Of a stretch of 64,000 nucleotides of DNA, positions 15,373-60,084 are shown one piece after another. A program made the position numbers and the translations under genes. The notes under the pieces are model-generated. The model did no database searches and was not told where the DNA came from. It saw only the letters and a program-made list of their open reading frames with translations. The stretch comes from an uncultured Ignavibacteriales bacterium. Lineage in GTDB: Bacteria > Zixibacteria > MSB-5A5 > GN15 > JAAZOE01. Each line of letters opens with the position of its first letter. Within the stretch, counting starts at the first letter, position 1. The stretch spans positions 5,466 to 69,465 of the forward strand of contig CAZGAV010000010.1 in the NCBI GenBank assembly GCA_964523575.1. Direction: 5' to 3'.

Positions 15373-15460
15373 TGAATAAAAAGCCTATAGTACAGGGCTC
15401 AGGTCACGGGGGAGAGCGCCGACAGTATAAAACATTACCTCCGTAAAAAATAAAAAATGG

Positions 15461-15489: not shown

Positions 15490-15619
15490 GATTAGATAGC
15501 TTGTCTGTTTTAGCCGAAGACTGACGGAATTGGGCGTACAATAGACGCCCGGCGGAATCTATTTAACTTCCCGACGTTAGGCGGGCGCAGTCTACTGGCA
15601 ACAGAGGACGGAGAGAGCG

Positions 15620-26849: not shown

Positions 26850-27025
26850 GATTTTCGGCTCCGCAAAGGGTTTGGCCAACATGATACCGACGCGGGAAGA
26901 TCGTGTCAATGAGAATAATGGCTTCCGGCTTCGCTCCGCCGACGGGGGGTGCCCGTTTGGGGGCCAAAACAGAATTCCTGCCTCATCTCTTGCAGTCCGG
27001 GCCGGAGCATATTATATTTCAAGCC

Positions 27026-34801: not shown

Positions 34802-34903
34802 TCATCCGTTTTTTTAACGCCCGGCCCATACTCGAATCGAAATTTCAAAGCCGCTCTTTGCCGATGAGCGCATCAATGGCTTCATCCGCCGTGGGGTTCC
34901 CGA

Positions 34904-36751: not shown

Positions 36752-36821
36752 GGATTCAGGTATGAAAATTAAAATCATTTCCGCAGCCGAAGGCGGCCAC
36801 ATTGAATAGGATGCAGGCATC

Positions 36822-37970: not shown

Positions 37971-37992
37971 CTGATGGAGGAAGCTAAGACAG

Positions 37993-39159: not shown

Positions 39160-39265
39160 CCTCATAAGGCAGTCGCTCCCTCGGTTGCAGGGAAAGGATC
39201 CGAGACCGCGATGATTCGCGGTGCGAGCGCCCTGATATTAATGATAAATACTATGGAGGTATGTT

Positions 39266-40777: not shown

Positions 40778-40788
40778 TAAATACCGCT

Positions 40789-41985: not shown

Positions 41986-42032
41986 TTATTTATCTCCCTG
42001 TCGGCGGCTGTTTATCATCCGCCGATGATTAA

Positions 42033-43202
42033 TCAGATCACAACCAGTTTTTCCTGAGGCGGCGCCAAAAAGCGCGCGCCGTTTTTTTCCAGGACAGCGT
42101 CCTCTTCCAGTCCGACACAGCCGATTCCCGGAAGCATGATTTCCAATTCGAGGGTAAAGACATTGCCTTCTTCCAGAGGCTGAAACGGCGTCGATCCGTA
42201 TCGTTCCCACTTAGGGCCAATAACGGCCCCGCCGTCATGGGCCCGACGCCCCAGTTGGTGCCCGAGAGCGTGCTGGTATTCCGGATAACTGCGTTCGGCA
42301 AGCCTTTGCCGCGCCAGAGCGTCCACTTCCCAGGCGGTCATTCCGGGACGGCAGAAGGCGGCCGTTTCGATAATGATATCCCTGACCAGATCAAAGGCCG
42401 CCGCAAGTTCCTCCGGCGGTTCAGTTTCACCCGGTTTAAGAAAATAACAGAGGCGCTGGAGATCGGAACAGTATTCATCGAGCCGAAGACCGAAATCGAC
42501 ATGGAGGAGATCACCCGGTCCAAGGACCGCCCCGGTCGGCTGACCATGGCCGGGCGATGATTTATCGCCGGCGTTGACGATCGTTGCAAAGGAATTGGTC
42601 CCGCCGGTCGCCGATATGCCATTGTCGATAATCTCTGCAATTTCCCGCTCGGTCATGCCGGTGGAAATCCGGGCCAAAGAATCCTCCCAGATATCGCAGG
42701 TTTTCTGCGCCGCGCGAGCCAGCAATTCGATTTCGACCGGAAGTTTGCGGCTCCGGAGTCGGGCGCAAATATCTTCGGCCGACACCAGGCGTTCGGCGTA
42801 GGGCGTACCCTCAAGGTATTCCAGCAATTGCAGATACATGCCATGAGTCAGACCATCGGCGGCCGGATTGTCGATCGAGAAATCGACGGCGATTTGACGC
42901 GGGTCGAACTTCTCGATCAATTGCCTGAATTGCTCGCGGGCGCCTCCGATGAAAGTATGAACTTCGGTGAAACGACCGCTTCCGGCAAATAGATCGCGGT
43001 CGAAATTTCCCACCAAGGCAACGGCCTGCTTATTTCGGGAATAAAGAAAAAAGGACTCCCAGGTGGCGTCCTCGCCGACCACCAGGGGCAGGACCGGGTC
43101 GGCCATCATCATCGTCTCCCGGACAAAAACCAGCCAGAGGTCGATGTCCAGTTCGTTAAGGAGACCATAAGCCTGATCGATTTTTTGCCTGATTATATCC
43201 AT
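42033..43202 (-). CDS. M24 family metallopeptidase (Xaa-Pro aminopeptidase/creatinase-like)
   Basis: HVDFGLRLDEYCSDLQR, HALGHQLGRRAHDGG, FTLELEIM and GLEEDAV are the pita-bread metal ligands. The start is ambiguous (43202 preferred; 43271 or 43415 possible), and no clear RBS is present. Confidence 0.8.
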   Translation of the reverse strand: MDIIRQKIDQAYGLLNELDIDLWLVFVRETMMMADPVLPLVVGEDATWESFFLYSRNKQAVALVGNFDRDLFAGSGRFTEVHTFIGGAREQFRQLIEKFDPRQIAVDFSIDNPAADGLTHGMYLQLLEYLEGTPYAERLVSAEDICARLRSRKLPVEIELLARAAQKTCDIWEDSLARISTGMTEREIAEIIDNGISATGGTNSFATIVNAGDKSSPGHGQPTGAVLGPGDLLHVDFGLRLDEYCSDLQRLCYFLKPGETEPPEELAAAFDLVRDIIIETAAFCRPGMTAWEVDALARQRLAERSYPEYQHALGHQLGRRAHDGGAVIGPKWERYGSTPFQPLEEGNVFTLELEIMLPGIGCVGLEEDAVLEKNGARFLAPPQEKLVVI

Positions 43203-43427
43203 AAGGCCAAAATAATCGCAGTCAACGTCGAGGACAACGACTAAATGACCAATTGTCAAGCTTTTGGCCATTGACCACGGGCTGTTCAATTTTTGCCCAG
43301 TGATGGCCGGCGGGATCGCGATGCCCGGTCGGCAAAAACCGGCCGTTTCCGGCCGCCAAGTGTTTAGAAAACATGAAGATAATCCGATATAAAGATTAAT
43401 CTCTGGTCGATTCAAAGATTCTATTAA

Positions 43428-46400
43428 ATGATGCGGACAACAATAGTAATAACAATGCTTCTCATGCTTGCCGCCGCAGTAGCGCCGGCGACAGGTTATT
43501 ATGTGTCGCCCGATGGCGATGATGCCAACGATGGCCTGACTCCCGGCGCCGCCTGGAAGGACATCGATAACGGCGATGTCAAAGGTCTTCTGGCGCCGGG
43601 CGACGTCGTCAATATCCTGCCGGGACTATATTCCACCACCGCAACTATCATGCTGAGCACCTCCGGCACCGAAACGCTTCCGATTACTTATCGAGGACCG
43701 GACAGCGGCGGAGTCATCGTCGATATGGGCGGGATCTCGGATGAAATCATCCAGATCGACGGCCATCATGTCAATCTGATCGGCCTGACCCTGACCAATT
43801 GCGGCCGCCACGCCATCCGCATCTACGGCGATACCTGTCTGGTCACCGAATGCTTTCTCCATGACTATGGTCTTCAGGGTATCGATGTTAACGGCGACGG
43901 CAATTTGATACAGAAAAATATCATGTATAACGCCGGCCAATGCGGTATTACCAACCGCTCCGGGGCCACCGGCAACAAATTTTATGGCAATACCATTTAC
44001 AATTGCGGCTATCAGGGTATCTGGATCGATTACACTGTCTATTCCTGCCGGGCTTTCAATAATGACATCGTCTTGTGCGACGAAGGTATTTCGGGGGCAT
44101 CATGGAATAAGTGCGGCTTTAACAACATCTGGAATTGCGCTTCCGGCAGCTACGTCGGTGGCGTTTATGATTCGGCCGGCGGTCTCGCAGTCGATCCTTT
44201 ATTCATGAATGCGGCGGGGGCCGACTTCAACCTGCAATCAGGTTCTCCGGTCATCAACAAGGGCATCGATCTCGGCTATTCATATTATGGCTATGGGCCC
44301 GATCTGGGGGCTTTGGAATACCTTCCGGAAATTCAACGAACCTATTGGGTTTCGCCGACAGGCAATGATCTGGCCGATGGATTTTCCGCAGCCACCGCCT
44401 GGAAATCTATTGATAATGGCGAGAAAAGGGGGATCCTGGTACCGGGCGATACTATCAATATCCTCCCGGGATTATATCAGCCGGCGGCGACGCTGGAAAT
44501 GATATCGAGCGGTTCGCCGACAGCGTCCATTGTTTATCGCAAAATCGGCAAGGCTTCGGCCAAAATCGACGGTCGCGCCACCATCAACACGCTGATATTG
44601 ATCGAGGGAGATTATGTCGAGATCCATGGTCTGGAATTGACCAACAACAAAGATCACGGAATTCATATCAAGGGTGACCACGGTCTAATTACCGGCTGTT
44701 ATATTCACGACATCGAAAATTTTGGAATCCGGCTCGAAGGCGATTCTATTCTGGTATTGAAAAATGTCATCGCTTTCACGCGCGACGACGGGATCCGAAA
44801 CGAAGACGCCTCTTACTATTGCCGCTACTACGGCAACACCATTTATGGTTGCACCAATGACGGCATGGAGCTCAAGAAGGGATCTTCCCGGGCTTTCAAC
44901 AACATCGTGGCCCAAAATGCGGTCGGTATCAAAGCCTCATCGACCGATATTTGCGCTTTCAACAATGTCTGGGGCAATCCGGGCGGCAATTACAGCGGGA
45001 CCGTCGATTCCGCCGGCGGTATTTCGGTCCTGCCGAAATTCGTCAATTCCGCCGCCGGACGTTATGACCTTCTGGCTTCCGCCTCCGAAATTGACGCCGG
45101 GCTGGACCTTGGTTATCCCTACAACGGGGCCGCCCCGGATATCGGCGCCTTTGAAAAATACAATGTCTATTATGTCAACCCCAGTGGTGACGATCTTCTT
45201 AGCGGCCGCACGCCCGACAGCGCCTGGGCCTACATCGATAACGGCGATTCTCTGTTATTTCCCGGCGACACCGTCTATGTTATGCCCGGCGCCTATACCA
45301 ACCGAGTCATAATTACGGACAGCGGTCTCGTTGATGACAGAATTGCCTATGTCGGCGTCAGGGATTCCTGCCTGATCGAAACGTCCGAAGCCGCCAACGC
45401 CGTCAGTCTTTTATCCGAATACATCCTCTGGTCGGGTATCAGCGTTCACAACGCCATATCCGACAACATGTATATCAACGGCGGCAACAATCGAATTGAG
45501 GCCGCCACCTTCGGGAGCGGAGGATCCTACGGCATTGATATCGCCGTCGGGCAAAACAATAACATCGTCCATAGTGTTTTTTCGAAAAACGCCCTGGCCA
45601 ATATCCACATTCACGACGACTATAATGCCATCTACAACTGTTCTTTTCTCGACTCCGCCGGCTATGGAATCGACGCTCAGGGGTATCAGCACCAGACCAT
45701 AACCAACTGCATCTTTCAAGGGACAAACGGCGAAGACGTGGCCGTGATTACCAATGCAACCTCATCGTTGACCTATTGCCTTTTCTATAATAACCTGGCT
45801 TCCGCCAGCGGCGGCATCGGCATGGGAACGGGATGTTTCGTGGCCGACCCGTTATTCATAGACCCTGCCGGCGGTAATTTCAGATTGCAGTCGCATTCCC
45901 CGGCCATTGACGCCGGGGTGTATGTTGGATTGCCGTTTGAGGGGTCGGCTCCCGATCGCGGCGCCTATGAAACCGGAATTCTCGATCAGTTGACGATTTC
46001 GCCCGTGTATGAATCGCTGAACGCCGATTCCCAGTATCGATTTGAAACCCTCGGATGGGACAGCGTTGGCTATCCGGCCGATCCCGGACATATAACCTGG
46101 TCGCATACCTTCGCCACCGGTAATATAAATGGCGCCGGTCTTTTTCAGCCGCAGATGATCGGAACAGGTGAAATTATCGCTGAATCGGATATCAATCTCA
46201 TCTCCGCGGCCTCGCCGACCATGACGGTGATTCCGGGCGCTTTGGATAATTTTGTTATAACCCCCAGCCGCGATACGATCTCGGCCGATGACACCAGACT
46301 TTTCACCGTCGCCGGATACGATCAGTGGGGCAATGAGGTGATCGAAACCGGATTACTGAACTGGCAGGTGATGAACAATATCGGCGTCATAGACGGCGAC

Positions 46401-49400
46401 GGACTATTCGACGCCCAGCATGCCGGCATTGGTTTCATTCGGGTTTCCAGTGAACTTGGACCGACCGAAATATCCGATACCATCATCGTCATCCCGGGTG
46501 AGATCGCCGCTATCGACGTCACTCCGGCCACAATTATTGTCGTCGAGGATTCTTCATATCAGTATTCGGCCTCCGGGATCGATGCCGATCTCAATCTGGT
46601 CAGGGACCTGACCGATTCGGTCACCTGGGCGACCACCGACCCCGGCGGCAATATCAGTCCATCCGGGCTCTATACGGCCGGCAACAGCCCGTCGCCGCCT
46701 GTGTATTCGGTCACAGCGACCTACCAGGGGCTCATGAGTGATTCCGGTCAGGTATCAGTCATCAGCAATGGTTTGATCAATTATGTCCGGATCGAATGGC
46801 AGAACGGCACGCCATTCACTGACACCGTCCTGACCACCGATATCGACTCGACCCGGCTTTATTGCCGCGGATATACATCGGGCGACGTTTTACTGGGTGA
46901 TGTTTCCGTGATCTGGTCGGTTAGCGGCGGCGATTCCATCGGCGTCTTTTATCCGTCCGCCGGAGTGACCAGTACTCTGGAACTGCGTCGGCCGGGAACC
47001 GGTCGGCCGGTCGCCACCTACTCGGCTTTGATCTCCGATACCGGCGGTACTATTGGGTGCGCGGCCGGAATTCCGGATGTCATCGATGTCTCGCCCGATT
47101 CGGCTGTCATATCCGCCGACAGCAGTATGCAGTTTACCATGATTCTCTTCGATTCCGACGGCAATGTCACCACCGCCGGTGAAACTCCCGGCTGGCAGGT
47201 CATCGGCGGTATAGGAATCGTCTCGCCTGAGGGGAATTTTATCCCCTCGCAAATCGGGACCGGATACATCGTCGGATATGCGGGCGAGACCGCTGATACG
47301 GTCGGACCGATAACGGTGACGGCCGGATCCCTTGACCACATAACCGTGATTCCCGATTCGGCTTTGATTTCAAGCGATTCCGTTCTTCAATTCGCCGTCA
47401 CCGGTTATGATGCCGAAGATAATCTCTGCGATCCCGGCGCTGTCACATGGTCGGTGACGTCGCCGCTTGGAGTCATCGATTCCACCGGATTGTTCAATCC
47501 CACAATTGTCGGTTTGGCCCGGATAGTCGCCTCGTCCAGCCTGGGTCCGGTCGATACCTCCGCCTATTTGGAAGTGACCCCCGGCCGCCTGAATGCTCTG
47601 CAGATTATCCCCGATTCGGCCACGCTCACCACCGACAGCACTCTGATCTTTACCGCTGCCGGGCGGGATGCCGACGGCAACCCGACCTCGACCGGCACGA
47701 TTGTCTGGTCGGTCACCGGCGGCATCGGCGATATCAATTCCTCCGGTCAGTTTACGCCTTTGACTATCGGAAGCGGCCGCATCGTGGCCCTCAGCAATAT
47801 CGACGGCGTCTGCGATACCACCGCTGAAGTGCAGGTCAATCCGGGCTTGCTGGATATAATGGTCATCACGCCCGACTCGGCTCGATTACAGATCGGCGAT
47901 ACGCTTGATTTCGCGGCCACCGGGTATGACGCTCGGTACAACATTACCGACGTCGGTAACTTGACCTGGTCGGTGCTGGGCGTGATAGGCCAAATCGATA
48001 ATAACGGCCGCTTTGTGGCCCAATCCCGCGGCGAGGGCAATATTAAAGTTGTCAGCGACATTAATTATGTGGAGGCGATCTCGGGCGCCGTCGTGGTCGA
48101 GGCTCTTCAACTAACGGCCATCCCGCTTGGCAACAGCTATATCCGGCCCCGCGAATCATCGGTTCCGGTTCTCGCCTTCCGAATCGACAATTACTATATA
48201 GAAAATAAATCGCTCACGGGCTTGACGATTCGGGACATCAGCCGGGGGGATGGCAGTACCGAAGAAATGGCGGCCAATCTTGACCGAGTCTATCTCTATA
48301 TCGACCGGGATGATGATTCCACCCTTTCTCCCGGCGACAGCCTGGCGGCGTCGGCCGCCTATTCCACGGGAATAACCGATTTGACTTTCCCCGGAATCGT
48401 GGTACCCGGAGGGTCGGGACTCAATTTCATAATCACCGCCGACGTCAGCCTTTATCCGCATGACGGCGATTCGATCGATGTTTATTTTGCCACCGACAGC
48501 GATCTGCAAACCAAAGAAATCCTCTCGATCATCGGACAACCGTCCATAAATTCCGTCGGCTACGGCATTATCAACGGCCTGATCGCGGAACAGATAACCG
48601 TCAGCGCCTCGGGCTCCGACATCATCCATCCCGCGGAGACTTTATATAATTGCTTGACGCTCGATATCCCCCGAGACGGGTATGCCTCCGATATCCTGGA
48701 AGTCATGAGTATCGCCAATGCCGGCACCGCCGGACCCGCTGATATCGACTCCCTCGTGCTCTATGCCGATGACGGCAATAATGTATGGGGCGGTCCGGAC
48801 GAAGAAAACCGCCTGGGACGACCGGCCTTCACCGGCAATCGCTGGACTATCAGCGGCCTGGACCTGCCTCTGGTATCGCCTCTGACCCGGTTGTACATCG
48901 CCGCGACGCCGTCGGAATATCCGGAAAACGGATCGACCATTGCTTTGTACATCCCCGTCAACGGTCTCGAAATGTCATCCGATAATGACGGCCCTTATGA
49001 TTTCCCGACCATAGCCGTCGATACGCTTGTCATCGAAACCGACGAAAAAGTTACCATCACCACAGGCGATATTCCTTTCCGCGAACTGATTCCGGGACAA
49101 CTCACCGGGCCTTTGACCGGTTTCGAACTGACCAACCGGTACAACAATGAACTGGCCCTCGACAGCCTGACCTGCCGGGTGTTGACTTATGATCCCCAGG
49201 GAGCCACTCAGGAACAACTCGACAGCCAGATTGACAGCCTGCTCTTGTATATCAATCGCGACGGCGATTACTCGCATCTGGGAGCCGCCGATTCTTTGAT
49301 CTCGACGACAGTGCCGGTCGGGGGACAGGTCGTGTTCATAACCGAAAATTTGATCATTCCCCCGGACGGCGGCCGGCTGAGTTTGTCGGTGGCGGCGTTT

Positions 49401-52400
49401 CTTGACCATGAAAACAGTCGCAACGGCAACACTTTGAATATATCCATAGACAGCGCCGACGATCTTAATTTCGATCAACCGGCCGCGGTCGAGGCCGAAT
49501 GGCCTTTGACCAATGACGCCGATTTCAGAATCAACGCCTTCCCGGCCTCGCGAGTGATTATCAATCCGATTGAAGTGAGCACCCTGTTCGGGGGACAGAG
49601 CAACCGTCCGGTCATGGATTTCATCCTTCCCGGCAATGGTTACGCCGCCGATATTCTGGATGGTTTCAGCCTTCACAACTCCGGCACGCTGAATGAATTC
49701 GAGGCTCTCTTATCGGTCAAATTATGGGCCGACAACGGCGATGGCGTTTTTACCACCGGCGATAATATGTTGGGGCGTCTGGTCCCGGGACCCGCCGTCT
49801 GGACCATAAGTAATTTGAATTATGCCGTCGCCTCGTCCGGCGCTCGATTCTTTGTAACCGTCGATGTCATTGCCGATCAGAGCGAGGCGGGGACATTGCT
49901 GTTCAAAATTCCCGTCAGGGGAATCACTTATCGGTCGTCGATGAACGGTCCCGATGATGCTGAAGTCGGCAATCCCGAGGCCCATTTGGTTTTCCCGTCC
50001 AACCGGATTTTCGCCATCTCTATCCCGGCCTCCGGCGATAAAGACCTGACGCCCAAAAGCGTCCGCAATATGGCTTTGTCCTTTGCTCTCTACAACGGTT
50101 ATGTCGGTCAGGATCAAACGCTCGAGGCGATCAATTTCACTAATATCTCGCACAGCGCTTCGGGGGCGCCCTTCGCCGATCATGAGTTCGGCCAGGTCTC
50201 CTTATATATGGATACCGACAGCAGTCGGACTTTCAACGGCGACAGCCTGATCGCGGCCGGAGTATTCAAAAACGGCCGTCTGCAGGTCAGCGGCCTCGAC
50301 GTTACCCTCCCGCCGGAAGCGCTAAAATATTTCTTCGTCGTTATTGATGTCCCGCTGGATTTGATTGACGCCGACAGCCTGGCCCTTTCCATCGCGGCGG
50401 CGGCCGATATCATGTTTGCCGAACCGGTCAGTATCGGTGGCGATCTGCCGTTGATCAGCGGCAGTCACCTGATCGTGAACGGATCGGTGCGGCGTCAGTA
50501 TGTCGCGGTCGAAACCCCGCCCCGGTCGGTCAGTCCCGGCGACAGCGCCGTCACGCTGCTCACTTTCAAGCCGGCCGTCAACGGAAATCTGAGCGATACT
50601 CTTCAGGCGATCACTCTGGAAAATACCGGAGCCGCCGATCCGGGGGATTTCCACACTCTTCAATTATGGCTCGATACCAACGACGATAATCTCTGGCAGG
50701 CCGGAGATTCCCTGCTTGGACCTTTTACGGATCACACCGGTTTCTGGATGGCAGAGGGCATTTCCGGCGTCATCGAAACCCCGCCGCCGACTATGTTCGT
50801 GACCTGCAATATTGCCGATACCACGGCCGTCAACGCCTCCTTCCGGGCCCGGATACCGCTGAACGGATGCGATTACTCATCCGCCAACGACGGCCCGCTT
50901 GATTCGGTGCTGACCGCCTCCAACGCCGTCACCGTTTCCGGATCGGGGCTGGCTGTCTCGGCCGGTTCGATGGACCCGACCTGTTCGGTCGGTCAGACGA
51001 TTATGGTGCGCCTGAATGTCACCAATCGATCAGATATGACGATGACCGGTGTTTCGGGGGAAATCGTCGGCGATTACGATACCACGGTTGTACGGCCGGA
51101 CAGCAATTTCTCCGGCCCGGTCAGCCTGGGACCGCAGGCTTCGACCGAATTCACCTACTTCTTTACGGCTCTCAGCCCGGCCCTGGTTTCATGGCACCTG
51201 CGCGCCGCCGATCCCGGTGTGCCCGATACTTCGGCGAGTATCGAGACCGCCCCGGTGATGATTCAGGCTGCGCCCGGCAATGTCAAAATAAATTTCGTCA
51301 ATTCCATACCGACGGCGGTCATCAAGGGACAGGCCAACGTCTTCCCGCTGAGTTTCGGCTATGCGCATCCCGATTCCGGGTCGATGTTCGCTTCCCTGAG
51401 GCTTGACAGCCTGCAACTGACCGTCGAAAACGGCGCCGGAATACCGATTGAGGCCAGTTCGGTATTCAGCCGGATTCTGCTCGTCACCGGCTATACCAAT
51501 CTGTCGGCGCTGGAAACGATTCCCAACCAATCGCAAGTATGGTTGGTCTTCGATGAACCGGTCATCGTCGCGCCCGGCCAGACCCAGCATTATTCGCTTC
51601 TGGTCGATATCGACCCGAATACCGCCGCCGGAAGTTTTGCTCTGGCCATCGCAGGTGCCGGTTCGATCCCGATCACCGATTACAATACCGAACTGGCGGC
51701 GACTTTCGACCCCACGGTCGTGTTCCCGATGAAAACGGCCTCATGCCGTATCGATAATCCTTCGGAATATATGTTCATCTCGTATGAATCGGTGGCTCCC
51801 GCGACAGCCAATTACGGCCAGCAGAATGTGCCCCTGATCCGGCTCGATATCCGCCATCCCGGCGCCGCCGGAAGCTCTCAAATTCAGTTTACTTCGCTGG
51901 CGGTGCGGTTTATCGATGCTTTCGCCGCGGCTCTGCCGATCGGCGATATGTTCGAACGGTTGTCGATTCGACGGCAGTCAACCATTATCGGCACTGTCTC
52001 CTCGATCAATTTCGACTCTCTGGAAACAGTTATCGATCTGGCCCTGCCGGTAACGCTCAGCGCCGGCGAAACGGCGGCCCTGACAATCGAGGCCTCCGTC
52101 AATGAAATGACCGCCGGTGATGGGTTCAGTTTATATATCCCCGATAGTACCGTCTTCATGGTGCGCGACCTCAGTTCCGGATCGTTGCTGGAGGTGACCA
52201 CCGACACCTTATTGCTATCGGCCGGTGTTTCCGCCTTTCCGCTTATGTCCGACTGGGTTACTCTTAAAAATCAGGCGACCGCGCCCGAGATTTGCTTCCA
52301 GTCGAATCTCCCCGACATCGTCATCGGCGGCGCCGATTCGACGGTGCTTCTCCAGATGACTTTCGATTATCCGGCGGGCGAGGATTATTCTCCGATCCGC

Positions 52401-53588: not shown

Positions 53589-55612
53589 AGCGAGCCGTTC
53601 TGTACATATTGAGCCTGAGCCTGCTGGTGCTGATGTCGCCGCTATCGGCCTCCGATCAGGGCGGCACCGAATCGCCCTTCAGTTTCGGCGCCGGGGCGCG
53701 GGAATTGGCGCTTGGAGGCGCCGGTTTGGCCGAATGCAATGGCGACATGGCTCCTTTCTGGAATGCTTCGCGGCTGGCCCGGGCCGGACAATATTCACTG
53801 AGCGCCTTCCACAGCAATCTCTATGAATCCGACGTCGCCTATCAATACCTCGGCCTGGCTGTCCCGACCATGGATTTCGGTTCCTTCGGGCTGGGTATTT
53901 TCCGACTGGGAATCAAGGGCATCCGGAAAAGAGACGAGGGCGACCTCTACCTCGGCGATATCGACGACAACCGGCTGGCCGTCAATCTGGCTTATGCCCG
54001 GACGATTTCCGATTACGACTTCGGCCTGGTCATCATGATGGAGCATCATTCGCTCGATGATTACTCCGCCACTTCCTCGCCCGGCTTCAATCTTTCCGCC
54101 GGCCGTCGTTTTGAACTGAATAACGGACGGTTCCGATATATTTCGGCGGCCGTCAATTTCCGCAACCTGATCAAGCCCCATATGAATCTGGTGGAAGAAA
54201 ACATCGGTTATCCCGGGGCTCTTGATCTCGGATTGACTTCCGGTATCATGCCCAATCCCCGATGGAACCAGACACTGAATCTCTCCCTCCGGCTGACCAA
54301 GGTCGAAAATCTGGATCCCGATCTTAGCGCCGGGATTGAATATGATATCGAAAAACTGCTCTGGATTCGCGGCGGTATCCATGATCGCAAATTGTCGATG
54401 GGCGCCGGGATCAAAATCAAGTCCGTCGCCTTCGATTATGCTTTAGTCGATCGCGATCTGGGCAGTCTTCATATGTTTACTCTGACGACTTCCTTCGGTA
54501 TGCCCATCAAGGAAAAACGGCAGGAACGCCTCCGCCGCCGCGAGGCCGAATTCGACGATCTGATGCGTGACCGGCTGATGTCGCTTAATCGTGAAAAAGT
54601 CTCTCAGATGACCGCCGAGGGGAGGCAGTTGCTGGAAGAAGGAAAGCTGGTCGAGGCCGCCGGCGCTTTTGACCGGGCGCTCTTCCTGGCCCGCGCCAGC
54701 AGTCTTGACTCGACCGCCATAATCGATCTGGCTCAGGAAACGCAATCCCGGCTCCGGGAAGTTTCGCGGACTGAGCGTTACCAGCAATTCCTCGATTCCG
54801 CCGGGGTCAAATTAACCAATGGGGATTTTCTGGCGGCCCGTTATTTCGCCTCCCTGGCCCTGACCGAGAAGCCTGATGCTCCGGAAGCGAAGGCGGTATG
54901 GAATCGGGCCGATGAAACTATCCGGCAATTGGAATCGCGGGAAGAGACCATCAAGAATCAACTTTGGGCCGCCGACTCCTTGCTCAGTTACGGGCAGATC
55001 GATCAGGCTCTGACCCTGCTGTCGGCGCTGGAGGAGTATGCTCCCGGTGATATCAATGTCGGCAAGGCCCGGCGCAAAGCGGTTTTTGAACGATGGCGCA
55101 CCATGGCCTCAAACGCCTATTCCACCACCCAATTCGACCTCGCCTTGTCGGCGCTCGATTCGGCTCTGAGCCTGTTTCCGGGGCATGAATGGTGTCTTGA
55201 TTTGAAAAAACGGATTCAAAGGGAATCGACCCTGACCGAACAAAAAACGGCACCGGCGCCGATGGCTTCGATCGCGGAACCTCTCAGCCCCGAACTGGAA
55301 AAAGAGGTGGCCGCCGCCTATACGACCGGGCGCGATCTCTTTACCCGGGGCGAATTGCCCGATGCGATAAAATTCTGGGAGAAAGTCGAACGCATGGCGC
55401 CCGATTACCTTTCGGTGCGCAGTTATCTGGTCAACGCCTACCGGTTCGTCGGCATCGATCTCTACAGCCGCAGTCTTTACGATCAGGCAGTGGAGGTATG
55501 GAAAAAGGCGGTCCGCCTCGAACCGGATAATGAAGAAATCAACGGTTATATCCGGCGGACCGAAACCGAAATCAGGAAATTACAAGAGTTGTCCTATGAG
55601 CATGGGAAATAA
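53585..55612 (+). CDS. Outer-membrane beta-barrel-like protein (PorV/PorQ/UPF0164-like N-terminus) with C-terminal coiled-coil/TPR region
   Basis: ATGA overlap with the giant gene. Signal peptide MKRAVLYILSLSLLVLMSPLSA. GAGARELALGGAGLA...FWNASRLA and alternating beta-strand patterns run to ~aa 300. TPR-like helices follow (AIKFWEKVERMAPDY...AVEVWKKAVRLEPDN). The family call is tentative. Confidence 0.5.
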   Translation: MKRAVLYILSLSLLVLMSPLSASDQGGTESPFSFGAGARELALGGAGLAECNGDMAPFWNASRLARAGQYSLSAFHSNLYESDVAYQYLGLAVPTMDFGSFGLGIFRLGIKGIRKRDEGDLYLGDIDDNRLAVNLAYARTISDYDFGLVIMMEHHSLDDYSATSSPGFNLSAGRRFELNNGRFRYISAAVNFRNLIKPHMNLVEENIGYPGALDLGLTSGIMPNPRWNQTLNLSLRLTKVENLDPDLSAGIEYDIEKLLWIRGGIHDRKLSMGAGIKIKSVAFDYALVDRDLGSLHMFTLTTSFGMPIKEKRQERLRRREAEFDDLMRDRLMSLNREKVSQMTAEGRQLLEEGKLVEAAGAFDRALFLARASSLDSTAIIDLAQETQSRLREVSRTERYQQFLDSAGVKLTNGDFLAARYFASLALTEKPDAPEAKAVWNRADETIRQLESREETIKNQLWAADSLLSYGQIDQALTLLSALEEYAPGDINVGKARRKAVFERWRTMASNAYSTTQFDLALSALDSALSLFPGHEWCLDLKKRIQRESTLTEQKTAPAPMASIAEPLSPELEKEVAAAYTTGRDLFTRGELPDAIKFWEKVERMAPDYLSVRSYLVNAYRFVGIDLYSRSLYDQAVEVWKKAVRLEPDNEEINGYIRRTETEIRKLQELSYEHGK

Positions 55613-55613
55613 A

Positions 55614-57209
55614 ATGCAGGAGACCAATTGGCCGGAAGCCCGGGACTATCGAAAGTCGATCCGGTGGGAATTTTCGATCTATGTTTCAGGCATGATCATC
55701 ATCCTGATGCTGGTCACCGGCTTTGTCATTACCGACCAGTATGTCAGGCGGGTAACCAATAATATCGTCGATAAACTGCTGGTGCAGGCCCGCTCCTACT
55801 CCGGCCCGGCCGGCAAATTGATAATCGCCGCCGACGCGCCGGACGCCTTGCTTCTGAGCAACATCTGCAAAAAGCTCTCGATCGACAATCCCGACGTGTA
55901 CTGGTCGGGCATCGCCGGACAGGATGATATTTATCTGGCTCACACTGACATCAAAAATGTCATCGCCGGCGCCCGGATGGAACCGGTGACCTCGGTTCAA
56001 TTCGGAGAAATATTGAGGCCGGGCGAGGCCTTCGACCTGGCCGGAGACACCCTGTTCATTCTATCTCCGATCATTGAAAATGGAATCCCGGTCGGCAAAC
56101 TCAAAGTCGCCGCCTCGACGCGGCAGATCGTTGAGGCCCGTAACGCCTCCATAATGACGGTGGCCTCCATCACGGCCCTGGTGATGCTCCTCGGGATTCC
56201 CCTGACCATGATCATCCTCCATCGGAAACTGCGCCCGGTGGCCGAAATGACCGACTATCTCAAAAGCATCGACGTCGATAACATTGCCATCGACATCCCC
56301 TTGCAGAAAAACAACGAGTTCGGATATCTGGCCCAAACGCTGAGAGTCATGGGGGCCAAATTGAATCAGGCGCGTGACGATTTGATCGAAAAGGAACGTA
56401 TCGCCCGCGAACTTGAAATCGCGCACGAAATCCAGGCCAACATGCTTCCCCGCGGTTGTCCCGCCGACGATCAGATGGAATTCTCGGTCGAATATCGAAG
56501 CGCCCGCGAGGTCGGCGGCGATTATTATGATTTTATGGAAATCGATGACAAACGCATCGGCTTTCTGGTGGCCGACGTTTCCGGGAAATCGTTGCCGGGA
56601 ATGCTGGTCATGTTGCTAACCCGGGATATCGTCAAGCGGGAGGCCCGAAGAACACCCGATCCGGCCGGATTGCTTCGAAGCGTCAACCGGGAACTGCTCC
56701 CCAATATCAAAAGGGGGATGTTTGTCACAATGTTTGTGGGGGTGCTCAACCGGATTACCGGCGTTTTCACTTTCGCATCCGCCGGTCATAACCCCCTGAT
56801 TCGCCTGGGCGCCGGAACTGGTGATCCCGAATTGCTAAAAACCAAAGGCTTTCCTCTGGGCTTGATGGAGGCCGAACAGTTCGATGAACGCCTCGAGCGA
56901 GGCGTTATTCAACTTGAACCGGGGGACTGGCTGGTTCAATACACCGACGGCATCAATGAAGCTCGCAATGCCGAAAATGTCGAATACGGCATGGATCGTT
57001 TTATCAGAAATCTTGAAACCGATCGCAACCTGACCGCGGGAAGTCTGGTCAAAGATGTCATCGAAAGACATTCCGAATTTGTCGGAACCGCCCCTCAGTT
57101 CGATGATATCACCCTTCTGGTGATGAAGTGGAAGGGCGTTTTGGCCGATACCAAGAACAGACCCCAGCGCGACGAGGTCCGGGTCGATCAAGAGGAAATT
57201 ACCAGATGA
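55614..57209 (+). CDS. Membrane-bound HAMP-PP2C (SpoIIE/RsbU-type) serine phosphatase
   Basis: Trimmed to ATG 55614, 1 nt after the previous stop. Two TM segments and a HAMP-like linker, then EIAHEIQANMLP, GGDYYDF, VADVSGKSLPG, SAGHNP, YTDGINEA, DDITLLV. Confidence 0.88.
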   Translation: MQETNWPEARDYRKSIRWEFSIYVSGMIIILMLVTGFVITDQYVRRVTNNIVDKLLVQARSYSGPAGKLIIAADAPDALLLSNICKKLSIDNPDVYWSGIAGQDDIYLAHTDIKNVIAGARMEPVTSVQFGEILRPGEAFDLAGDTLFILSPIIENGIPVGKLKVAASTRQIVEARNASIMTVASITALVMLLGIPLTMIILHRKLRPVAEMTDYLKSIDVDNIAIDIPLQKNNEFGYLAQTLRVMGAKLNQARDDLIEKERIARELEIAHEIQANMLPRGCPADDQMEFSVEYRSAREVGGDYYDFMEIDDKRIGFLVADVSGKSLPGMLVMLLTRDIVKREARRTPDPAGLLRSVNRELLPNIKRGMFVTMFVGVLNRITGVFTFASAGHNPLIRLGAGTGDPELLKTKGFPLGLMEAEQFDERLERGVIQLEPGDWLVQYTDGINEARNAENVEYGMDRFIRNLETDRNLTAGSLVKDVIERHSEFVGTAPQFDDITLLVMKWKGVLADTKNRPQRDEVRVDQEEITR

Positions 57210-57958
57210 TAATCTTCCCCGCCAGTCTTTCCGCCGATGAGATCGACCGTTTCTACGACGAAACGGCCCGGTCGCTTCAGTCGAAAACCGCGGAGGCTGT
57301 CGAAATCGATTGTTCCCGAATCGGACGGGTGACGTCCAGCCATATCAATATCTTGTGGCAGGCTCGTATCCAATGCACCGCCGTCGGTTCGGAACTCTCA
57401 TTGATATCGCCCTCGGCCGATCTCATCCGCGTGCTTCGGGCGCTCGATTTATATGAGGTTTTTATTCCCCAGCCGGGCCGGCAGGCGGAGACCGAATTCC
57501 TTCCTGGAAAAACCGGCCCCCTCGACTCGGGACAAGCTTTCGATCTCAGCTTCAAACCCGACGCTCGGAGTATCGACTCCGCCCTGACCGCCTTCCGCGA
57601 TTTCCTTGAGCAAATCAAGGTCGTCGGAACCCCGGCCTTCGAACTCGAAACCGCCTTCTATGAAGTCGCGACCAATATTCGCATCCACGGCCAATTGGGG
57701 AACGAAGATACGGTCGAATTCACGGCCGAATGTCTGCCCGACCGGCTGTCGATGCGATTTATTGACCCCGGACGTCCGTTCAATTATGAGGCCCTGCAAA
57801 GTGATTTCGATCCCGGGCAGGCTATGGCGGAAGGCCGTAAAAGAGGTTTCGGCCTGGTCATGATATCTCGATTGACCGACAATGTCCGGTATGAACGCCG
57901 GGATAAGAGATATAATGTCCTGACGGTGGAAAAAAGCTGGAGTCGGGCCGATGGATAA
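57206..57958 (+). CDS. Fusion of STAS-like (anti-anti-sigma) domain and RsbW/SpoIIAB-type Ser kinase (HATPase_c_2) domain
   Basis: ATGA overlap with the phosphatase gene. The N-terminal ~85 aa are STAS-like (VEIDCSRIGRVTSSHINILW...LIRVLRALDL). The C-terminus has FYEVATNIRIHG (N-box), FIDPGRPF (G1) and GFGLVMISRLTDNV (G2). Confidence 0.65.
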   Translation: MIIFPASLSADEIDRFYDETARSLQSKTAEAVEIDCSRIGRVTSSHINILWQARIQCTAVGSELSLISPSADLIRVLRALDLYEVFIPQPGRQAETEFLPGKTGPLDSGQAFDLSFKPDARSIDSALTAFRDFLEQIKVVGTPAFELETAFYEVATNIRIHGQLGNEDTVEFTAECLPDRLSMRFIDPGRPFNYEALQSDFDPGQAMAEGRKRGFGLVMISRLTDNVRYERRDKRYNVLTVEKSWSRADG

Positions 57959-58304
57959 ACACTCATTCGATATTAAGAAACTGAACGATTTCACCATCAT
58001 GGTCGATCCCGGAGGCCGGCTGGATAACAATAACGCCCAGGCTATGGTGGAAACCCTGCTGACGGCCCGGTCCGAGGGTTACATGCATGTCATCATCGAC
58101 ATGAATCGTCTCGAATTTTTATCCTCGGCCGGCGTCGGTTCCATACTGGGGACGGTCGAACACTTCCGGGCCGAAGGCGGCGATATCGTGCTGTGCAACG
58201 CTTCCCCCGAAATCGTCCATGTCTTTCGGGTTCTTGACCTGATCGATTACCTGACCGTCAAGGCGAGCGCCGAAGAAGCCGTCAAATTCTGCGAAACCGG
58301 GTGA
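57951..58304 (+). CDS. STAS-domain anti-sigma-factor antagonist (SpoIIAA/RsbV-like)
   Basis: VIIDMNRLEFLSSAGVGSILG (phosphorylatable Ser context) and ...VHVFRVLDLIDYL. Overlaps the upstream gene by 8 nt. Confidence 0.85.
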   Translation: MDKHSFDIKKLNDFTIMVDPGGRLDNNNAQAMVETLLTARSEGYMHVIIDMNRLEFLSSAGVGSILGTVEHFRAEGGDIVLCNASPEIVHVFRVLDLIDYLTVKASAEEAVKFCETG

Positions 58305-59968
58305 TGAGATTGAAAACGACCGCATCAGAAGAAAAAGATAGCCAATATCTGGCCTGGTCGGATCGCCAGAAGTATGACAAACAGGTTCTGGCTCTCAACG
58401 CCCTGACCGATCTGGCCCGGAAATTTTCCAATAAGCCCGATTTCCATAATCTTGTCGATACCGTCGTTCTGACCCTGGCCGGGCAGTTTTCGGCTACCGG
58501 CGCTTTTGCCCGGCTGGTTCAGCCGGGGGCCTCATCCTCCCGCCAGATGATTTATGCCACCGGAAAATTCAAGAACGAAAGCCTCCTGGAACAACTGGAA
58601 TTCACCGAAGAACACACCCGTTACTTTCTTGAAAACAGCCATCCCCGGGAAGTCGATGAACTGTCACTATCGGGGCCGTCGGCCAATCTCGGATTCATCT
58701 TATCGGAATGCGGCGTCGCGCTCATTGCCCCCCTGCTTCATGATCGCCGCCTGATCGGCCTTTTCGGGTTGGGGGAGAAGGTCACGAAAAAGCCTTTTGA
58801 ATCTTCCGAAAGGGACCTGCTGATGACCATTGTCAATACCATCACGCCCCTGATCGTCAATGCCTATCTGTTCCATGAAATTTCCGAGGTCAATGACTGG
58901 TATTTGCAGATTCTGGATAACGTCAAACAGGGCGTTTTCGTCTTTGATGATATTTACCGCCTTAAAAAAGTCAACGTTCCCGGATACAATATCCTCAAGA
59001 CCTTTCGGCCGCATCTCAAACATATCGAATCGCTTTATAATATCCCCCTCAAGGCCCTTTTCCCGGATACGATTTATCCCGGCTGGGCTCGTCAGCTGGT
59101 CAGGGTCGGAGCCGGGGGCGAGAGTATGCTCTGGGAAAAAATGAAAGCCAAACAGGGAGAGAACGAATGCATTTACAATGTCCGGGTCGGAGCCATCGCT
59201 CATGAGGCCGGGCAGGGCCGCGATTTCATTATCACCGTCGATGATGTGACGGCGCAGGAGGAGAACGACCAGCGTTTATTCGACCTGGAAAAATTCGCCG
59301 AGAAGGGGATGATGGCTTCCTCGATCTCCCATGAACTGAATAATTACCTTGGGATGCTTCTGGGAGGAGTCGAACTGTCTCAGATCGCCATCAGCCGCGG
59401 AAAAACCGACAAGCTCAGTGAAACCCTCGAAAAACTCAAAGCCAATATCGGCAAAATGGAACGTTTTACGACCGGCCTCATGGACTACGCCCGGCTCAAT
59501 ACCCTCAAGAAACAAGCCAGCCTCAATACCGTCGTGACCGATGTGCTGTCATTTGCCGCCATCCAGAAACGATTCAAGAACATCACCATCGCCACCGACC
59601 TCGATGGTAATCTGCCCGATTACGATATGGACGCCGATCAAATCGCCCAACTTCTTCTGAATCTTCTCAACAACGCCGCCGATGCCATCCGGGACGGCGG
59701 CAGGAAGGCCGGTCATATCAAAGTCGGCACCCACCGCGAAAACGAAAACGTCTGCCTGACGGTTTCCGATAACGGGGCCGGCATCAAACCGGAAGTCAAA
59801 GAACGTCTTTTCAAATTCCATCTCACGACCAAACCGGGCGGCCACGGTTATGGCCTGGTGACCTGCAACAAAATTATCCGCAATCATCAGGGGCAGGTCG
59901 AAATCGAATCCGAACTCGGCGCCGGCACCACCTTTACCATCGCCTTCCCCATCACCACCGGCGAATGA
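58304..59968 (+). CDS. Cytoplasmic GAF(-PAS-like) sensor histidine kinase
   Basis: TGATG stop/start overlap (a GTG at 58301 is also possible). GAF-like region (LIAPLLHDRRLIGLFGLGEK), H-box MMASSISHELNNYL, N-box LLNLLNNAADA, G1 DNGAGI, G2 GHGYGLVTC. Confidence 0.88.
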   Translation: MRLKTTASEEKDSQYLAWSDRQKYDKQVLALNALTDLARKFSNKPDFHNLVDTVVLTLAGQFSATGAFARLVQPGASSSRQMIYATGKFKNESLLEQLEFTEEHTRYFLENSHPREVDELSLSGPSANLGFILSECGVALIAPLLHDRRLIGLFGLGEKVTKKPFESSERDLLMTIVNTITPLIVNAYLFHEISEVNDWYLQILDNVKQGVFVFDDIYRLKKVNVPGYNILKTFRPHLKHIESLYNIPLKALFPDTIYPGWARQLVRVGAGGESMLWEKMKAKQGENECIYNVRVGAIAHEAGQGRDFIITVDDVTAQEENDQRLFDLEKFAEKGMMASSISHELNNYLGMLLGGVELSQIAISRGKTDKLSETLEKLKANIGKMERFTTGLMDYARLNTLKKQASLNTVVTDVLSFAAIQKRFKNITIATDLDGNLPDYDMDADQIAQLLLNLLNNAADAIRDGGRKAGHIKVGTHRENENVCLTVSDNGAGIKPEVKERLFKFHLTTKPGGHGYGLVTCNKIIRNHQGQVEIESELGAGTTFTIAFPITTGE

Positions 59969-60084
59969 TCTCGGCGGCATTTTCGCCTTTCATTCCACGA
60001 CGTCTGTCTGGTCCGCGAGACTGCGGAAATTTACCTCGTTTATAAATTTGTGATAGCGGTCGTGATGCGCCGGCCAATATTTTA

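Follow-up and report, generated by a model that had tools for sequence, protein, structure and literature searches.

The window, i.e., the whole 64,000-nucleotide stretch of a Zixibacteria genome analysed here, contains six same-strand ORFs at 43428–59968 (+), whose junctions overlap or nearly touch according to the ORF list and to the sequence itself. They code for a giant surface protein, an outer-membrane protein and a set of signalling proteins, and the question raised by this locus is what the signalling genes have to do with the giant protein. An earlier note on this DNA had suggested that they report on, or gate, its display or secretion.

ORF 1 (43428–53588 (+), 3386 aa) encodes the giant protein and ORF 2 (53585–55612 (+), 675 aa) a PorV-TPR protein, the two overlapping by ATGA at 53585–53588. 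The phosphatase, ORF 3, ends at 57209 (+) and is listed with alternative starts at 55530 and 55614, and the RsbW-like kinase, ORF 4, ends at 57958 (+) with starts listed at 57128 and 57206. A free STAS protein is encoded by ORF 5 (57951–58304 (+)), and ORF 6, the histidine kinase, runs from 58301 or 58304 to 59968 (+). Direct reading gave ATGA at 57206–57209 for the phosphatase/RsbW-like kinase junction, an 8-nt overlap at 57951–57958 for the kinase/free STAS junction and GTGATG at 58301–58306 for the free STAS/histidine kinase junction. The junction coordinates in the earlier note were all confirmed except that between the PorV-TPR protein and the phosphatase, read there from start 55614, with which it is TAA-A-ATG at 55610–55616. 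Additional in-frame ATGs are present in the window at 55596 and 55602; since an identical database protein, P0121 (537 aa), corresponds to the phosphatase started at 55596, and the same junction in the orthologues is mostly an overlap of −11, −14 or −17, the start is probably 55596 or 55602, which would turn the 1-nt gap into an overlap of 17 or 11 nt. That stop and start codons overlap speaks for translational coupling, from which neither fixed stoichiometry nor a single transcript follows.

All six genes were found in the identical order in 41 distinct Zixibacteria genomes, the remaining Zixibacteria loci being interrupted by contig ends or an N-gap and a different neighbour being found in none. 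Order and tight junctions, as described for the window, recurred in every sufficiently long locus of the 58 genome loci, so the arrangement is not due to chance. The 4-nt giant/barrel overlap was ATGA in 48 of 54 Zixibacteria loci, and the histidine kinase followed the STAS gene in all those with enough sequence. No flanking gene was conserved, no flanking family occurring in more than 5 of 42 loci. The cassette is real and is conserved over more than 100 related loci.

The translation of ORF 1, analysed with Pfam and by self-comparison, corresponded to a giant secreted surface protein with a signal peptide (residues 1–23), three right-handed beta-helix modules of about 280 aa each (24–850), about eight Big_2-like Ig repeats (~850–1600), three repeats of ~320 aa detected by self-comparison (~1554–2500), a unique region (2500–3290) and a T9SS-like C-terminal domain (CTD; residues 3292–3386, 53301–53585 (+), PNPF...GTYFCRI...KIAVLR). 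The Pfam matches were Beta_helix, NosD, Big_2 and DUF5123. Orthologues from 26 complete loci were 1865–3217 aa long and covered residues 1500–3386 in every case, and in distant relatives homology was restricted to residues ~1875–3386. The N-terminal head is lineage-variable (beta-helix here; DUF11/CLIPPER, CARDB or CBM96 elsewhere); conserved are the C-terminal ~1500 aa, with the specialised T9SS-like domain at their end. The tail of the window protein scored below the curated cut-offs of TIGR04183 (16 bits, cut-off 23) and FlgD_ig (19 bits, cut-off 27); among 53 orthologous tails, FlgD_ig matched 38, Por_Secre_tail 18 and CHU_C 7. With a profile built from the orthologous tails, other Zixibacteria proteins were matched at their canonical type-A CTDs (E 1e-8 to 1e-14), and the distant giant proteins at their tails (59–94 bits). 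Judged from these profile matches, the tail and the bona fide type-A CTDs found in the phylum are homologues. The mean identity of the tail, 68%, far above the ~40% of the remainder of the protein, fits a dedicated partner.

A candidate for that partner is encoded by ORF 2. Its product carries a signal peptide, a beta-barrel (residues ~30–304) and a helical arm of ~370 aa with Pfam TPR matches (308–673), which probably lies in the periplasm. Its match to NCBIfam PorV_fam (E 4.9e-20) reached 72 bits, the cut-off being 90, and no PorP_SprF match at E<0.01 was listed for it in Pfam or NCBIfam. The top Foldseek PDB match of its AF2 model (pLDDT 87.8) was 6h3i_F (E 4.7e-8, TMt 0.65), a chain which we take to be PorV, followed by TPR proteins and FadL; the title of entry 6h3i is 'Structural snapshots of the Type 9 protein translocon'. 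The outer-membrane/TPR partner named in the earlier note can thus be refined to a PorV/PorQ-like T9SS-type barrel with a TPR arm, and one distant relative bears the NCBI name 'PorV/PorQ family protein'. Among the representative proteins covered by the search, 468 matched the PorV-TPR profile at E≤1e-30.

The third product (probably from 55596 or 55602, to 57209 (+)) is an inner-membrane transducer and phosphatase with the layout TM1, Cache-like domain (~135 aa), TM2, HAMP, coiled coil and PP2C/SpoIIE. Pfam gave SpoIIE with E 1e-42 and a weak HAMP match. In the AF2 model (pLDDT 82.7) a long helix, a second helix and five strands lie between the TM helices, and the nearest structure to the PP2C domain was SiaA-PP2C 6k4e (TMt 0.83); the SiaA equivalog model itself gave 47 bits, far under its cut-off of 700. 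The PP2C catalytic motifs GGDYYD, DVSGKS, TDG and DD are present and are conserved in the orthologues. Profile alignment of the periplasmic domain with the sCache_3_2 domains of distant relatives (hhalign probability 95.7%, E 9e-9) indicated that the sensor domain is homologous in the two groups. Cache domains classically sense small molecules, and this one could work without any involvement of the TPR arm. Among the Zixibacteria orthologues, conservation in the N-terminal half of this periplasmic domain is about equal to that in the catalytic domain, which fits a protein partner and not a variable small ligand.

The next two genes complete the partner-switching set recognised earlier, including the fusion of a STAS domain to the kinase. 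The RsbW-like serine kinase (57206–57958 (+)) has an N-terminal STAS domain (STAS_2, E 1.5e-7) and HATPase_c_2 at residues ~115–250 (E 1.8e-16), with N-box and G-box-like motifs. Among 48 orthologues, Ser44, the canonical STAS phospho-site, was at least 95% conserved by manual count of the conservation string, Cys36 96% and Cys57 90%. The free STAS protein (57951–58304 (+), 117 aa) is of the anti-sigma-antagonist type (Pfam STAS E 1.4e-16; TIGR00377 62.7 bits, over the cut-off of 53.45), and its FLSSAG motif, containing the canonical phosphorylatable serine, was at least 95% conserved in 47 orthologues. As had been stated, none of the six genes codes for a sigma or anti-sigma factor. The last product (58304–59968 (+)) is a histidine kinase with matches in Pfam and NCBIfam, made up of GAF-like, PAS-like, HisKA (H-box SHELNN) and HATPase_c regions, with no evident transmembrane segment and no receiver domain in the window. 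In the earlier note it was called a GAF kinase; no GAF domain was detected in the window protein at E<0.01, but GAF_2 was found in 18 of 27 orthologues and PAS families in 6–7 of 27. In some Zixibacteria a hybrid kinase with a receiver domain occupies this slot.

Distant relatives of the cassette were found in Krumholzibacteriota and in further soil and sediment lineages. Each of the seven distant contexts inspected showed a three-gene core, coding for the giant protein, the PorV-TPR protein and an inner-membrane transducer of the sCache-HAMP type. Across 80 metagenome loci, 54 of 55 informative cases had the giant gene upstream of the PorV-TPR gene, and the giant/barrel overlap was ATGA or GTGA in 71 of the 74 distant loci. 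The transducer directly followed the PorV-TPR gene in 51 of 52 distant metagenome loci, being absent downstream in locus L135; together with the Zixibacteria genomes, this bears out the synteny of signalling genes with the giant gene. Among 48 transducers analysed with Pfam, sCache_3_2 and HAMP were each found in 47, with SpoIIE as output in 36 (32 with fused HATPase_c_2), HD_5 in 9 and HisKA plus receiver in 2. The output is thus a PP2C-RsbW-like kinase fusion with STAS, often with a histidine kinase, or HD-GYP, with its motifs intact, or a hybrid histidine kinase. The histidine kinase followed STAS in 17 of 24 distant PP2C-type loci and never followed the HD-GYP type; being absent from the other 7, it cannot be the sole output. 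The signalling parts are linked by fusions, PP2C-kinase and kinase-STAS in distant relatives and STAS-kinase in the window. The whole signalling set follows the giant and outer-membrane genes in Zixibacteria; beyond them the transducer is constant, the output varies and the histidine kinase is often, though not always, present. From gene order and domain content, the invariant partner of giant protein and barrel is the Cache-HAMP transducer, not the partner-switching set. That the output is exchanged while the sensor stays constant suggests that signals enter a trans-envelope signalling device through the giant protein and its anchor.

A functional tie between the signalling and the giant protein is well supported by the synteny in all informative relatives, the unconserved flanks and the lack of a sigma or anti-sigma gene. 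Also well supported is the description of the cassette as a conserved envelope-spanning unit of Zixibacteria, with relatives beyond, whose core is the giant protein, the PorV-TPR barrel and the Cache-HAMP transducer. With moderate confidence we read the whole as a path from a surface-held giant protein through the PorV-like barrel and its TPR arm to the Cache-HAMP transducer and a cytoplasmic output. The giant protein would be exported and then held at the surface through its CTD by its own barrel, mirroring T9SS type-B cargo, which is anchored by dedicated carrier proteins (PMC12635249). The TPR arm would reach the periplasmic Cache domain, and the state of the giant protein (substrate- or surface-bound, under load, or absent) would set the cytoplasmic output via HAMP. 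We infer the site of contact, the direction of signalling and the choice between reporting and gating, the direction being judged solely by the kind of output domain. In the window, the PP2C domain would remove phosphate from the free STAS protein and perhaps also from the STAS domain of the RsbW-like kinase, this kinase would phosphorylate these targets in return, and unphosphorylated STAS would switch partner. The partner is most likely the GAF-PAS histidine kinase of the same cluster, given that no sigma factor is encoded there and by analogy with SiaC acting on SiaD, the alternative being an unlinked target. In sister lineages the same input would drive an HD-GYP c-di-GMP phosphodiesterase or a hybrid histidine kinase, outputs which point to a surface or attachment lifestyle decision.

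The cytoplasmic part resembles SiaABCD of Pseudomonas aeruginosa, in which a TM-HAMP-PP2C phosphatase, a small RsbW-like kinase and a STAS-type protein also occur without a sigma factor and the last operon gene encodes the enzyme controlled by the switch, as is proposed here for the enzyme gene that ends the cassette. That gene encodes a diguanylate cyclase in Sia, in contrast to the GAF-PAS histidine kinase of the cassette, whose RsbW-like kinase has the extra STAS domain; Sia also has no giant protein or outer-membrane partner. In FecA-FecR-FecI (TonB-dependent transducers) and RcsF-IgaA, as proposed here, the periplasmic domain of an outer-membrane barrel passes surface information to that of an inner-membrane regulator. 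The protein families are unrelated, however, the input is a siderophore or envelope stress and not, as proposed for the cassette, a giant tethered protein, and the outputs are an ECF sigma factor or the Rcs system instead of partner switching, c-di-GMP hydrolysis or phosphorelay. No description of a device such as the cassette was found in the searched literature, and it looks like an undescribed means of passing signals across the cell envelope.

The nearest precedent for cargo signalling suggests another explanation. In Porphyromonas gingivalis, signalling is activated when the CTD of PorA, a T9SS cargo that stays attached to PorV, binds PorY, an inner-membrane kinase, in the periplasm (PMC7712824, PMC12152298), which links surface or secretion status to the cytoplasm. 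By analogy, the Cache ligand could be a periplasmic CTD or the unexported giant protein, so that export backlog or completion would be reported and not surface events, the TPR arm being only a docking or chaperone platform for export. The tail is available in the periplasm prior to export, its unusual conservation within and across phyla speaks for this reading, and the three-gene core is accounted for equally well. We nevertheless consider it unlikely, since it leaves without reason both the conserved ~370-aa, probably periplasmic arm on the barrel in all relatives and the diversified N-terminal heads with retained stalk. PorA also differs in being small, encoded apart from its sensor and dependent on the general PorV, whereas the giant cargo has a dedicated, TPR-fused PorV-like barrel; its sensor is a histidine kinase and the output of PorA-PorV-PorXY-SigP an ECF sigma factor, as against Cache-HAMP with PP2C, HD-GYP or kinase output in the cassette, whose parts are probably all co-transcribed.

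Small ligands are commonly bound by Cache domains, and the transducer might sense a soluble chemical, co-transcription merely regulating or accompanying expression of the surface protein and the TPR arm mechanically linking barrel and giant protein to periplasmic secretion or motility machinery, in the way that SprB is coupled to GldK by the C-tail of SprF. The periplasmic tails of known T9SS dedicated carriers are attached to internal machinery (PMC12635249), and the giant protein shares its large size and repetitiveness with the gliding adhesin SprB. In Flavobacterium johnsoniae (PMC12635249, PMC9143113), SprB, a type-B cargo, is likewise a very large T9SS-CTD protein encoded directly upstream of its own outer-membrane barrel, SprF, which is thought to hold it on the cell and has a periplasmic extension. 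The cassette barrel, however, belongs to the PorV/PorQ and not to the PorP/SprF family, its extension is a TPR domain and not a short tail with twin cysteines, a transducer gene almost always comes next, and the hosts are outside Bacteroidota. One would expect a generic chemical sensor to turn up in changing contexts, but the transducer kept its place in 51 of 52 distant loci and in all Zixibacteria loci whatever the output, and the N-terminal half of its periplasmic domain is conserved like the catalytic core; single conserved cysteines, possible mimics of the SprF-GldK disulfide, are not conserved outside Zixibacteria. This explanation is accordingly rated as quite improbable.

The direction could also be reversed, a cytoplasmic state (STAS phosphorylation or c-di-GMP) acting through HAMP on the periplasmic domain, which would grip or release the TPR arm so that the giant protein is retained, released or exposed. 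In the Lap system, whether the giant adhesin LapA is retained at its outer-membrane pore is decided by LapD, which has a periplasmic domain, HAMP and degenerate GGDEF-EAL. LapA-LapE-LapG-LapD is alike in its giant repetitive adhesin, outer-membrane anchor, inner-membrane HAMP receptor with a periplasmic domain and tie to c-di-GMP. It depends, however, on type I secretion, a periplasmic protease and inside-out degenerate GGDEF-EAL domains, of which the cassette has none: a LapG-like protease is absent, and its cytoplasmic domains are intact enzymes of three signal-output classes (PP2C, HD-GYP and hybrid kinase) and not degenerate binding domains, which makes such control very unlikely. Finally, unrelated genes can share operons, but adjacency through compact genome organisation alone is effectively refuted by synteny, as order, strand and overlapping junctions are kept in the more than 100 loci at 25–70% protein identity while all flanks change.

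In the window, the flanks are a divergent M24 peptidase gene upstream and a convergent papain-like peptidase gene downstream, both unrelated to the cluster. A consensus scan located a terminator-like hairpin (GGCGGCATTTTCGCC followed by TTTCATT) at 59973–59987 (+), 5 nt past the last stop codon, a position suggestive of the terminator of the cluster.

Six open reading frames, all on the + strand, occupy positions 43428–59968 of the window and code, in this order, for a giant protein, a PorV-like barrel protein with tetratricopeptide repeats (PorV-TPR), a Cache-HAMP-PP2C transducer, a STAS-kinase, a free STAS protein and a histidine kinase. The cluster is bordered by a divergent M24 peptidase gene upstream and a convergent papain-like peptidase gene downstream, and a terminator-like hairpin begins 5 nt past the final stop codon. 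The tight junctions described in the earlier note were found between the giant and barrel genes (ATGA at 53585–53588, read from the sequence), the transducer and STAS-kinase genes (ATGA at 57206–57209, by direct reading), the STAS-kinase and free STAS genes (8-nt overlap, 57951–57958) and the free STAS and histidine kinase genes (GTGATG, 58301–58306). The 1-nt gap described between the barrel and transducer genes was less secure: TAA-A-ATG is present at 55610–55616, but upstream starts probably make an overlap the likelier arrangement. Alternative in-frame ATG codons of the transducer lie at 55596 and 55602, the former being preferred because the identical database protein P0121 has 537 aa, and in the orthologues this junction is mostly an overlap (−11, −14 or −17). 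Scans for sigma-70 promoter and terminator consensus sequences within the cluster were uninformative; the consensus may not be that of this phylum. All six genes are likely carried on one transcript.

The giant protein (3386 aa) starts with MMRTTIVITMLLMLAAAVAPATG followed by YYVSP, read by eye as a Sec signal peptide. It comprises a beta-helix part of three right-handed modules of about 280 aa each (residues 24–850), about eight Big_2-like Ig repeats (residues ~850–1600), three repeats of about 320 aa (residues ~1554–2500), a unique region (residues 2500–3290) and a 95-aa tail. Its matches among solved structures were limited to weak, Ig-like ones with Leptospira LigA. The orthologues are about 40% identical, and residues 1500–3386 are present in 26 of 26 complete copies from Zixibacteria. 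In one organism represented by both CP070674.1 and a Logan assembly (L001/L002), the giant gene at locus positions 3225–10004 is a single ORF of 2259 aa in one sequence and is divided into 2042 and 203 aa in the "complete" genome. It is similarly split in L004, L026 and L058, and such splits are likely frameshift or assembly errors in long repetitive genes.

[quoted passage not shown] The tail encoded in the window lies below both cut-offs tried (TIGR04183, 16 vs 23 bits; FlgD_ig, 19 vs 27 bits). Among the tails of 53 orthologues, FlgD_ig was matched in 38, Por_Secre_tail in 18 and CHU_C in 7, and a search with the tail profile retrieved other Zixibacteria proteins by their canonical type-A C-terminal domains (E 1e-8 to 1e-14). 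Canonical Por_Secre_tail domains also occur on further proteins encoded in Zixibacteria loci, an indirect sign that the hosts may have the T9SS translocon and motor. We refer to the tail of the giant protein as T9SS-like. Elsewhere in the window, a 903-aa ORF without a Pfam match (26903–29614, + strand) weakly resembles the profile of this tail at residues ~842–894 (E 4.7e-5) and may code for another T9SS-type secreted protein.

Residues 34–304 of the second protein (675 aa) match the PorV/PorQ family NF033709 (E 4.9e-20) with a score of 72.4 bits, under the curated cut-off of 90, and Pfam places its TPR region at residues ~340–655. The PorP_SprF family was not among its matches (Pfam at E<0.01; NCBIfam), and an exact-sequence lookup of this protein gave no match. 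In the AF2 model (pLDDT 87.8) the beta-barrel runs into a helix of 44 residues, with helical repeats after it. The closest PDB match of the model was 6h3i_F (E 4.7e-8, TMt 0.65), from the entry entitled "Structural snapshots of the Type 9 protein translocon", a chain which we take to be PorV; FadL came next. The modelled structure thus shows a FadL/PorV-type beta-barrel fold, and the TPR arm would be periplasmic if the number of barrel strands is even, as in PorV and FadL. A disulfide modelled on SprF-GldK, joining the single conserved periplasmic cysteines of the TPR arm (C537) and of the transducer (C85, counted from 55614), was rejected as a general mechanism because distant relatives lack both cysteines and, in two Zixibacteria, position 537 is Trp although C85 is kept.

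The third protein contains, in order, a transmembrane helix, a periplasmic domain of about 135 aa, a second transmembrane helix, HAMP, a coiled coil and PP2C. The domain between the two membrane helices has a Cache/PDC-like fold in the predicted structure. Pfam sCache gave weak matches in 2 of 52 Zixibacteria transducers and none in the others, so homology with the sensors of distant loci was established through the model and a profile–profile comparison with their sCache_3_2 domains (hhalign 95.7%, E 9e-9). The PP2C domain, matched by SpoIIE (E 1e-42) and structurally nearest to SiaA-PP2C, retains the catalytic motifs GGDYYD, DVSGKS, TDG and DD, (nearly) invariant among 50 orthologues. The fourth protein is a STAS domain joined to an RsbW-like GHKL serine kinase (HATPase_c_2, E 1.8e-16) that matches the RsbW equivalogs weakly (23.6 bits vs a cut-off of 145). 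In its STAS domain (gene 57206–57958), Cys36 and Cys57 are 96% and 90% conserved among 48 Zixibacteria orthologues and could form a redox or metal site. The fifth, a free-standing STAS protein (TIGR00377, 62.7 bits, exceeding the 53.45 cut-off), bears the canonical serine and an FLSSAG motif at least 95% conserved in the orthologues.

The complete partner-switching set announced in the earlier note is therefore borne out by a PP2C phosphatase with its catalytic motifs, an RsbW-like kinase and a STAS protein with a phosphorylatable serine, as is the statement on sigma factors: none is encoded in the cassette, and the flanking genes are not conserved. The sixth protein, described earlier as a GAF kinase, is a histidine kinase with GAF-like/PAS-like domains, but the GAF domain was detectable via the orthologues only. 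It contains HisKA and HATPase_c with the H-box SHELNN and has no evident transmembrane segment; a response regulator is absent from the cassette and its conserved flanks. At six Zixibacteria loci (L004, L010, L029, L030, L051 and L061) the kinase encoded by the sixth gene is a hybrid, longer and ending in a receiver domain, two of them with extra PAS and GAF domains; the position is kept and its occupant remodelled.

Homologues of the PorV-TPR protein of ~670 aa share 45–69% identity, and all the named ones are from Zixibacteria. A scan of species-representative genomes, in which six-frame ORFs were searched with the six window proteins, gave 58 loci. The proposed linkage of the giant gene with the signalling genes held throughout: the full set of six was present in 41 distinct loci with order and strand unchanged, the incomplete loci were interrupted by contig ends or by an N-gap (L056), and across the 58 loci no different gene was found in any of the six positions. 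All the junctions were tight, the giant/barrel junction being ATGA in 48 of 54 loci. Clustering of flanking ORFs, carried out in search of a conserved regulator, showed every family to be confined to 5 or fewer of the 42 loci; the cassette is therefore the conserved unit. L056 was rejected as an exception to synteny, its phosphatase gene being broken by an N run and scaffold join with no rearrangement. That N run (13252–13352) links the phosphatase to an unrelated fragment ending in a canonical T9SS C-terminal domain, in what looks like a scaffolding join in CP070756.1. Many Zixibacteria-type cassettes (44–56% identity to the window) sit in bins labelled "uncultured Ignavibacteriales/Ignavibacteriaceae", "Calditrichota" or "Eisenbacteria" (L004, L016, L018, L020, L025, L031, L032 and others; L013; L027), labels which are probably placeholders or wrong.

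A PorV-TPR profile compared with 1.84 billion representative proteins gave 468 matches at E<=1e-30, including, below the orthologues, a second tier of full-length barrel and TPR proteins of 630–700 aa, some named as Krumholzibacteriota and one annotated "PorV/PorQ family protein". The seven genomic contexts obtained for these distant proteins all start with a giant protein (2600–3300 aa; in L068 a C-terminal fragment of 1520 aa at a contig end), the PorV-TPR gene and an inner-membrane transducer. Downstream of the PorV-TPR gene, L063 and L067 carry an sCache_3_2-HAMP-SpoIIE-HATPase_c_2 fusion and then STAS; L064, an sCache-HAMP-SpoIIE protein, kinase, STAS and histidine kinase; L065, HAMP-SpoIIE and then the contig end; a JGI contig (P0298), HAMP-SpoIIE, a kinase-STAS fusion and a histidine kinase; and L066 and L068, an sCache-HAMP-HD-GYP protein with intact HD-GYP motifs and no partner switch. 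A metagenome scan added 80 further loci, with the giant protein upstream in 54 of 55 informative cases and a Cache-HAMP transducer directly downstream in 51 of 52. By Pfam, 48 of these transducers contained sCache_3_2 (47), HAMP (47) and SpoIIE (36, of which 32 with a fused kinase), other outputs being HD_5 in nine and HisKA plus receiver in two. The giant/barrel overlap was ATGA or GTGA in 71 of 74 distant loci. The three-gene core of giant, PorV-TPR and transducer genes is thus conserved beyond Zixibacteria and is smaller than the six-gene cassette; its Cache-HAMP sensor is constant while the outputs swap, and gene fusions link phosphatase, kinase and STAS. Similarity between the distant giant proteins and that of the window is confined to the last ~1500 aa and the specialised tail, the N-terminal modules of the former including DUF11/CLIPPER, CARDB and CBM96. 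In L067 a second sCache_3_2 protein (430 aa, 14501–15793) follows STAS in the place of the histidine kinase. L135, the sole informative distant locus without a recognisable transducer within ~6 kb downstream of the PorV-TPR gene, may represent a genuine loss or rearrangement.

Our tentative reading, which we hold at somewhat less than even confidence, is that candidate phyla related to Bacteroidota have a hitherto unrecognised class of sensor for contact or load that spans the envelope; in it, a fibre would act through the barrel and TPR arm on a Cache-HAMP transducer with swappable outputs. The giant fibre, anchored by T9SS-type machinery and bearing interchangeable substrate-binding heads, would be the antenna; its own barrel may keep it at the surface, much as dedicated carriers hold type-B cargo (PMC12635249). 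The dedicated PorV-like barrel would pass the state of the fibre to the transducer via the periplasmic TPR arm, which would touch the Cache domain. A feedback like that of PorA-PorY, with the giant protein's own tail as periplasmic ligand (PMC12152298), would account for the conserved tail but leaves the conserved TPR arm unexplained, and we consider it unlikely. Somewhat less credible is a chemical sensor acting independently, the TPR link being mechanical, which fits poorly with the near-perfect adjacency for every type of output. In the contact or load sensor, information would run inward. The cytoplasmic domains speak for this direction, being intact enzymes of three classes whose normal role is that of signal outputs; Lap-like control from the inside out fits poorly with such catalytically intact domains and is improbable. 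Chance adjacency of the genes, excluded by the synteny, has next to no likelihood.

During evolution of such a sensor the transducer would have exchanged one output for another, whether partner switching, phosphorelay or the hydrolysis of c-di-GMP. In every Zixibacteria locus that extends far enough, and in 17 of 24 distant loci of the PP2C type, STAS is followed by the histidine kinase, which never comes after the HD-GYP type; it is therefore tied to the partner switch, of which it would most simply be the target, by analogy with SiaC-SiaD. Since it is missing from some loci, the switch must have a further target as well. A decision on lifestyle or attachment is suggested by the HD-GYP variants together with the generally known roles of sigma-less partner switches.

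The individual components are of known kinds. The third protein scored 47 bits against the SiaA equivalog NF038263 (cut-off 700), and SiaABCD has the diguanylate cyclase SiaD as output, whereas the cassette has no GGDEF gene. The literature searched contained nothing combining Zixibacteria or Krumholzibacteria with T9SS, nor was any T9SS cargo-carrier pair linked there to partner switching or to signalling by HD-GYP; to our knowledge, T9SS and cargo-carrier pairs have been studied nearly exclusively in Bacteroidota. What appears undescribed is the combination in which a dedicated PorV-like barrel is fused to a TPR arm and its gene is invariably succeeded by that of a Cache-HAMP transducer whose outputs are interchangeable. 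In uncultured phyla (Zixibacteria, Krumholzibacteriota and common soil and sediment relatives), a cargo-carrier pair that is both conserved and specialised is genetically wired to a transducer. If the mechanism is true, it would be a new Gram-negative route to sensing what a surface protein touches, a third in addition to the Rcs system and to cell-surface signalling through TonB-dependent transducers. Sigma-less partner-switch modules gain a defined input from the cassette. The constant sensor with swapped output is a natural experiment, with STAS phosphorylation, c-di-GMP and phosphorelay as possible readouts, and hundreds of entries named "tetratricopeptide repeat protein" or "hypothetical" could receive a more precise annotation.

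The gene converging on the end of the cassette (60551–61957, − strand) codes for a C1 peptidase of the papain family whose C-terminal segment resembles a type-I dockerin, a module unusual in this phylum, and is not conserved beside the cassette in relatives. Upstream, positions 33144–43415 hold a run of amino-acid or peptide metabolism genes unrelated to the cassette (two alanine-racemase-like genes, a sodium:solute symporter, an M20 peptidase, a class-III aminotransferase, a PALP enzyme and an M24 peptidase), which may be a cluster for D-amino-acid or peptide utilisation.
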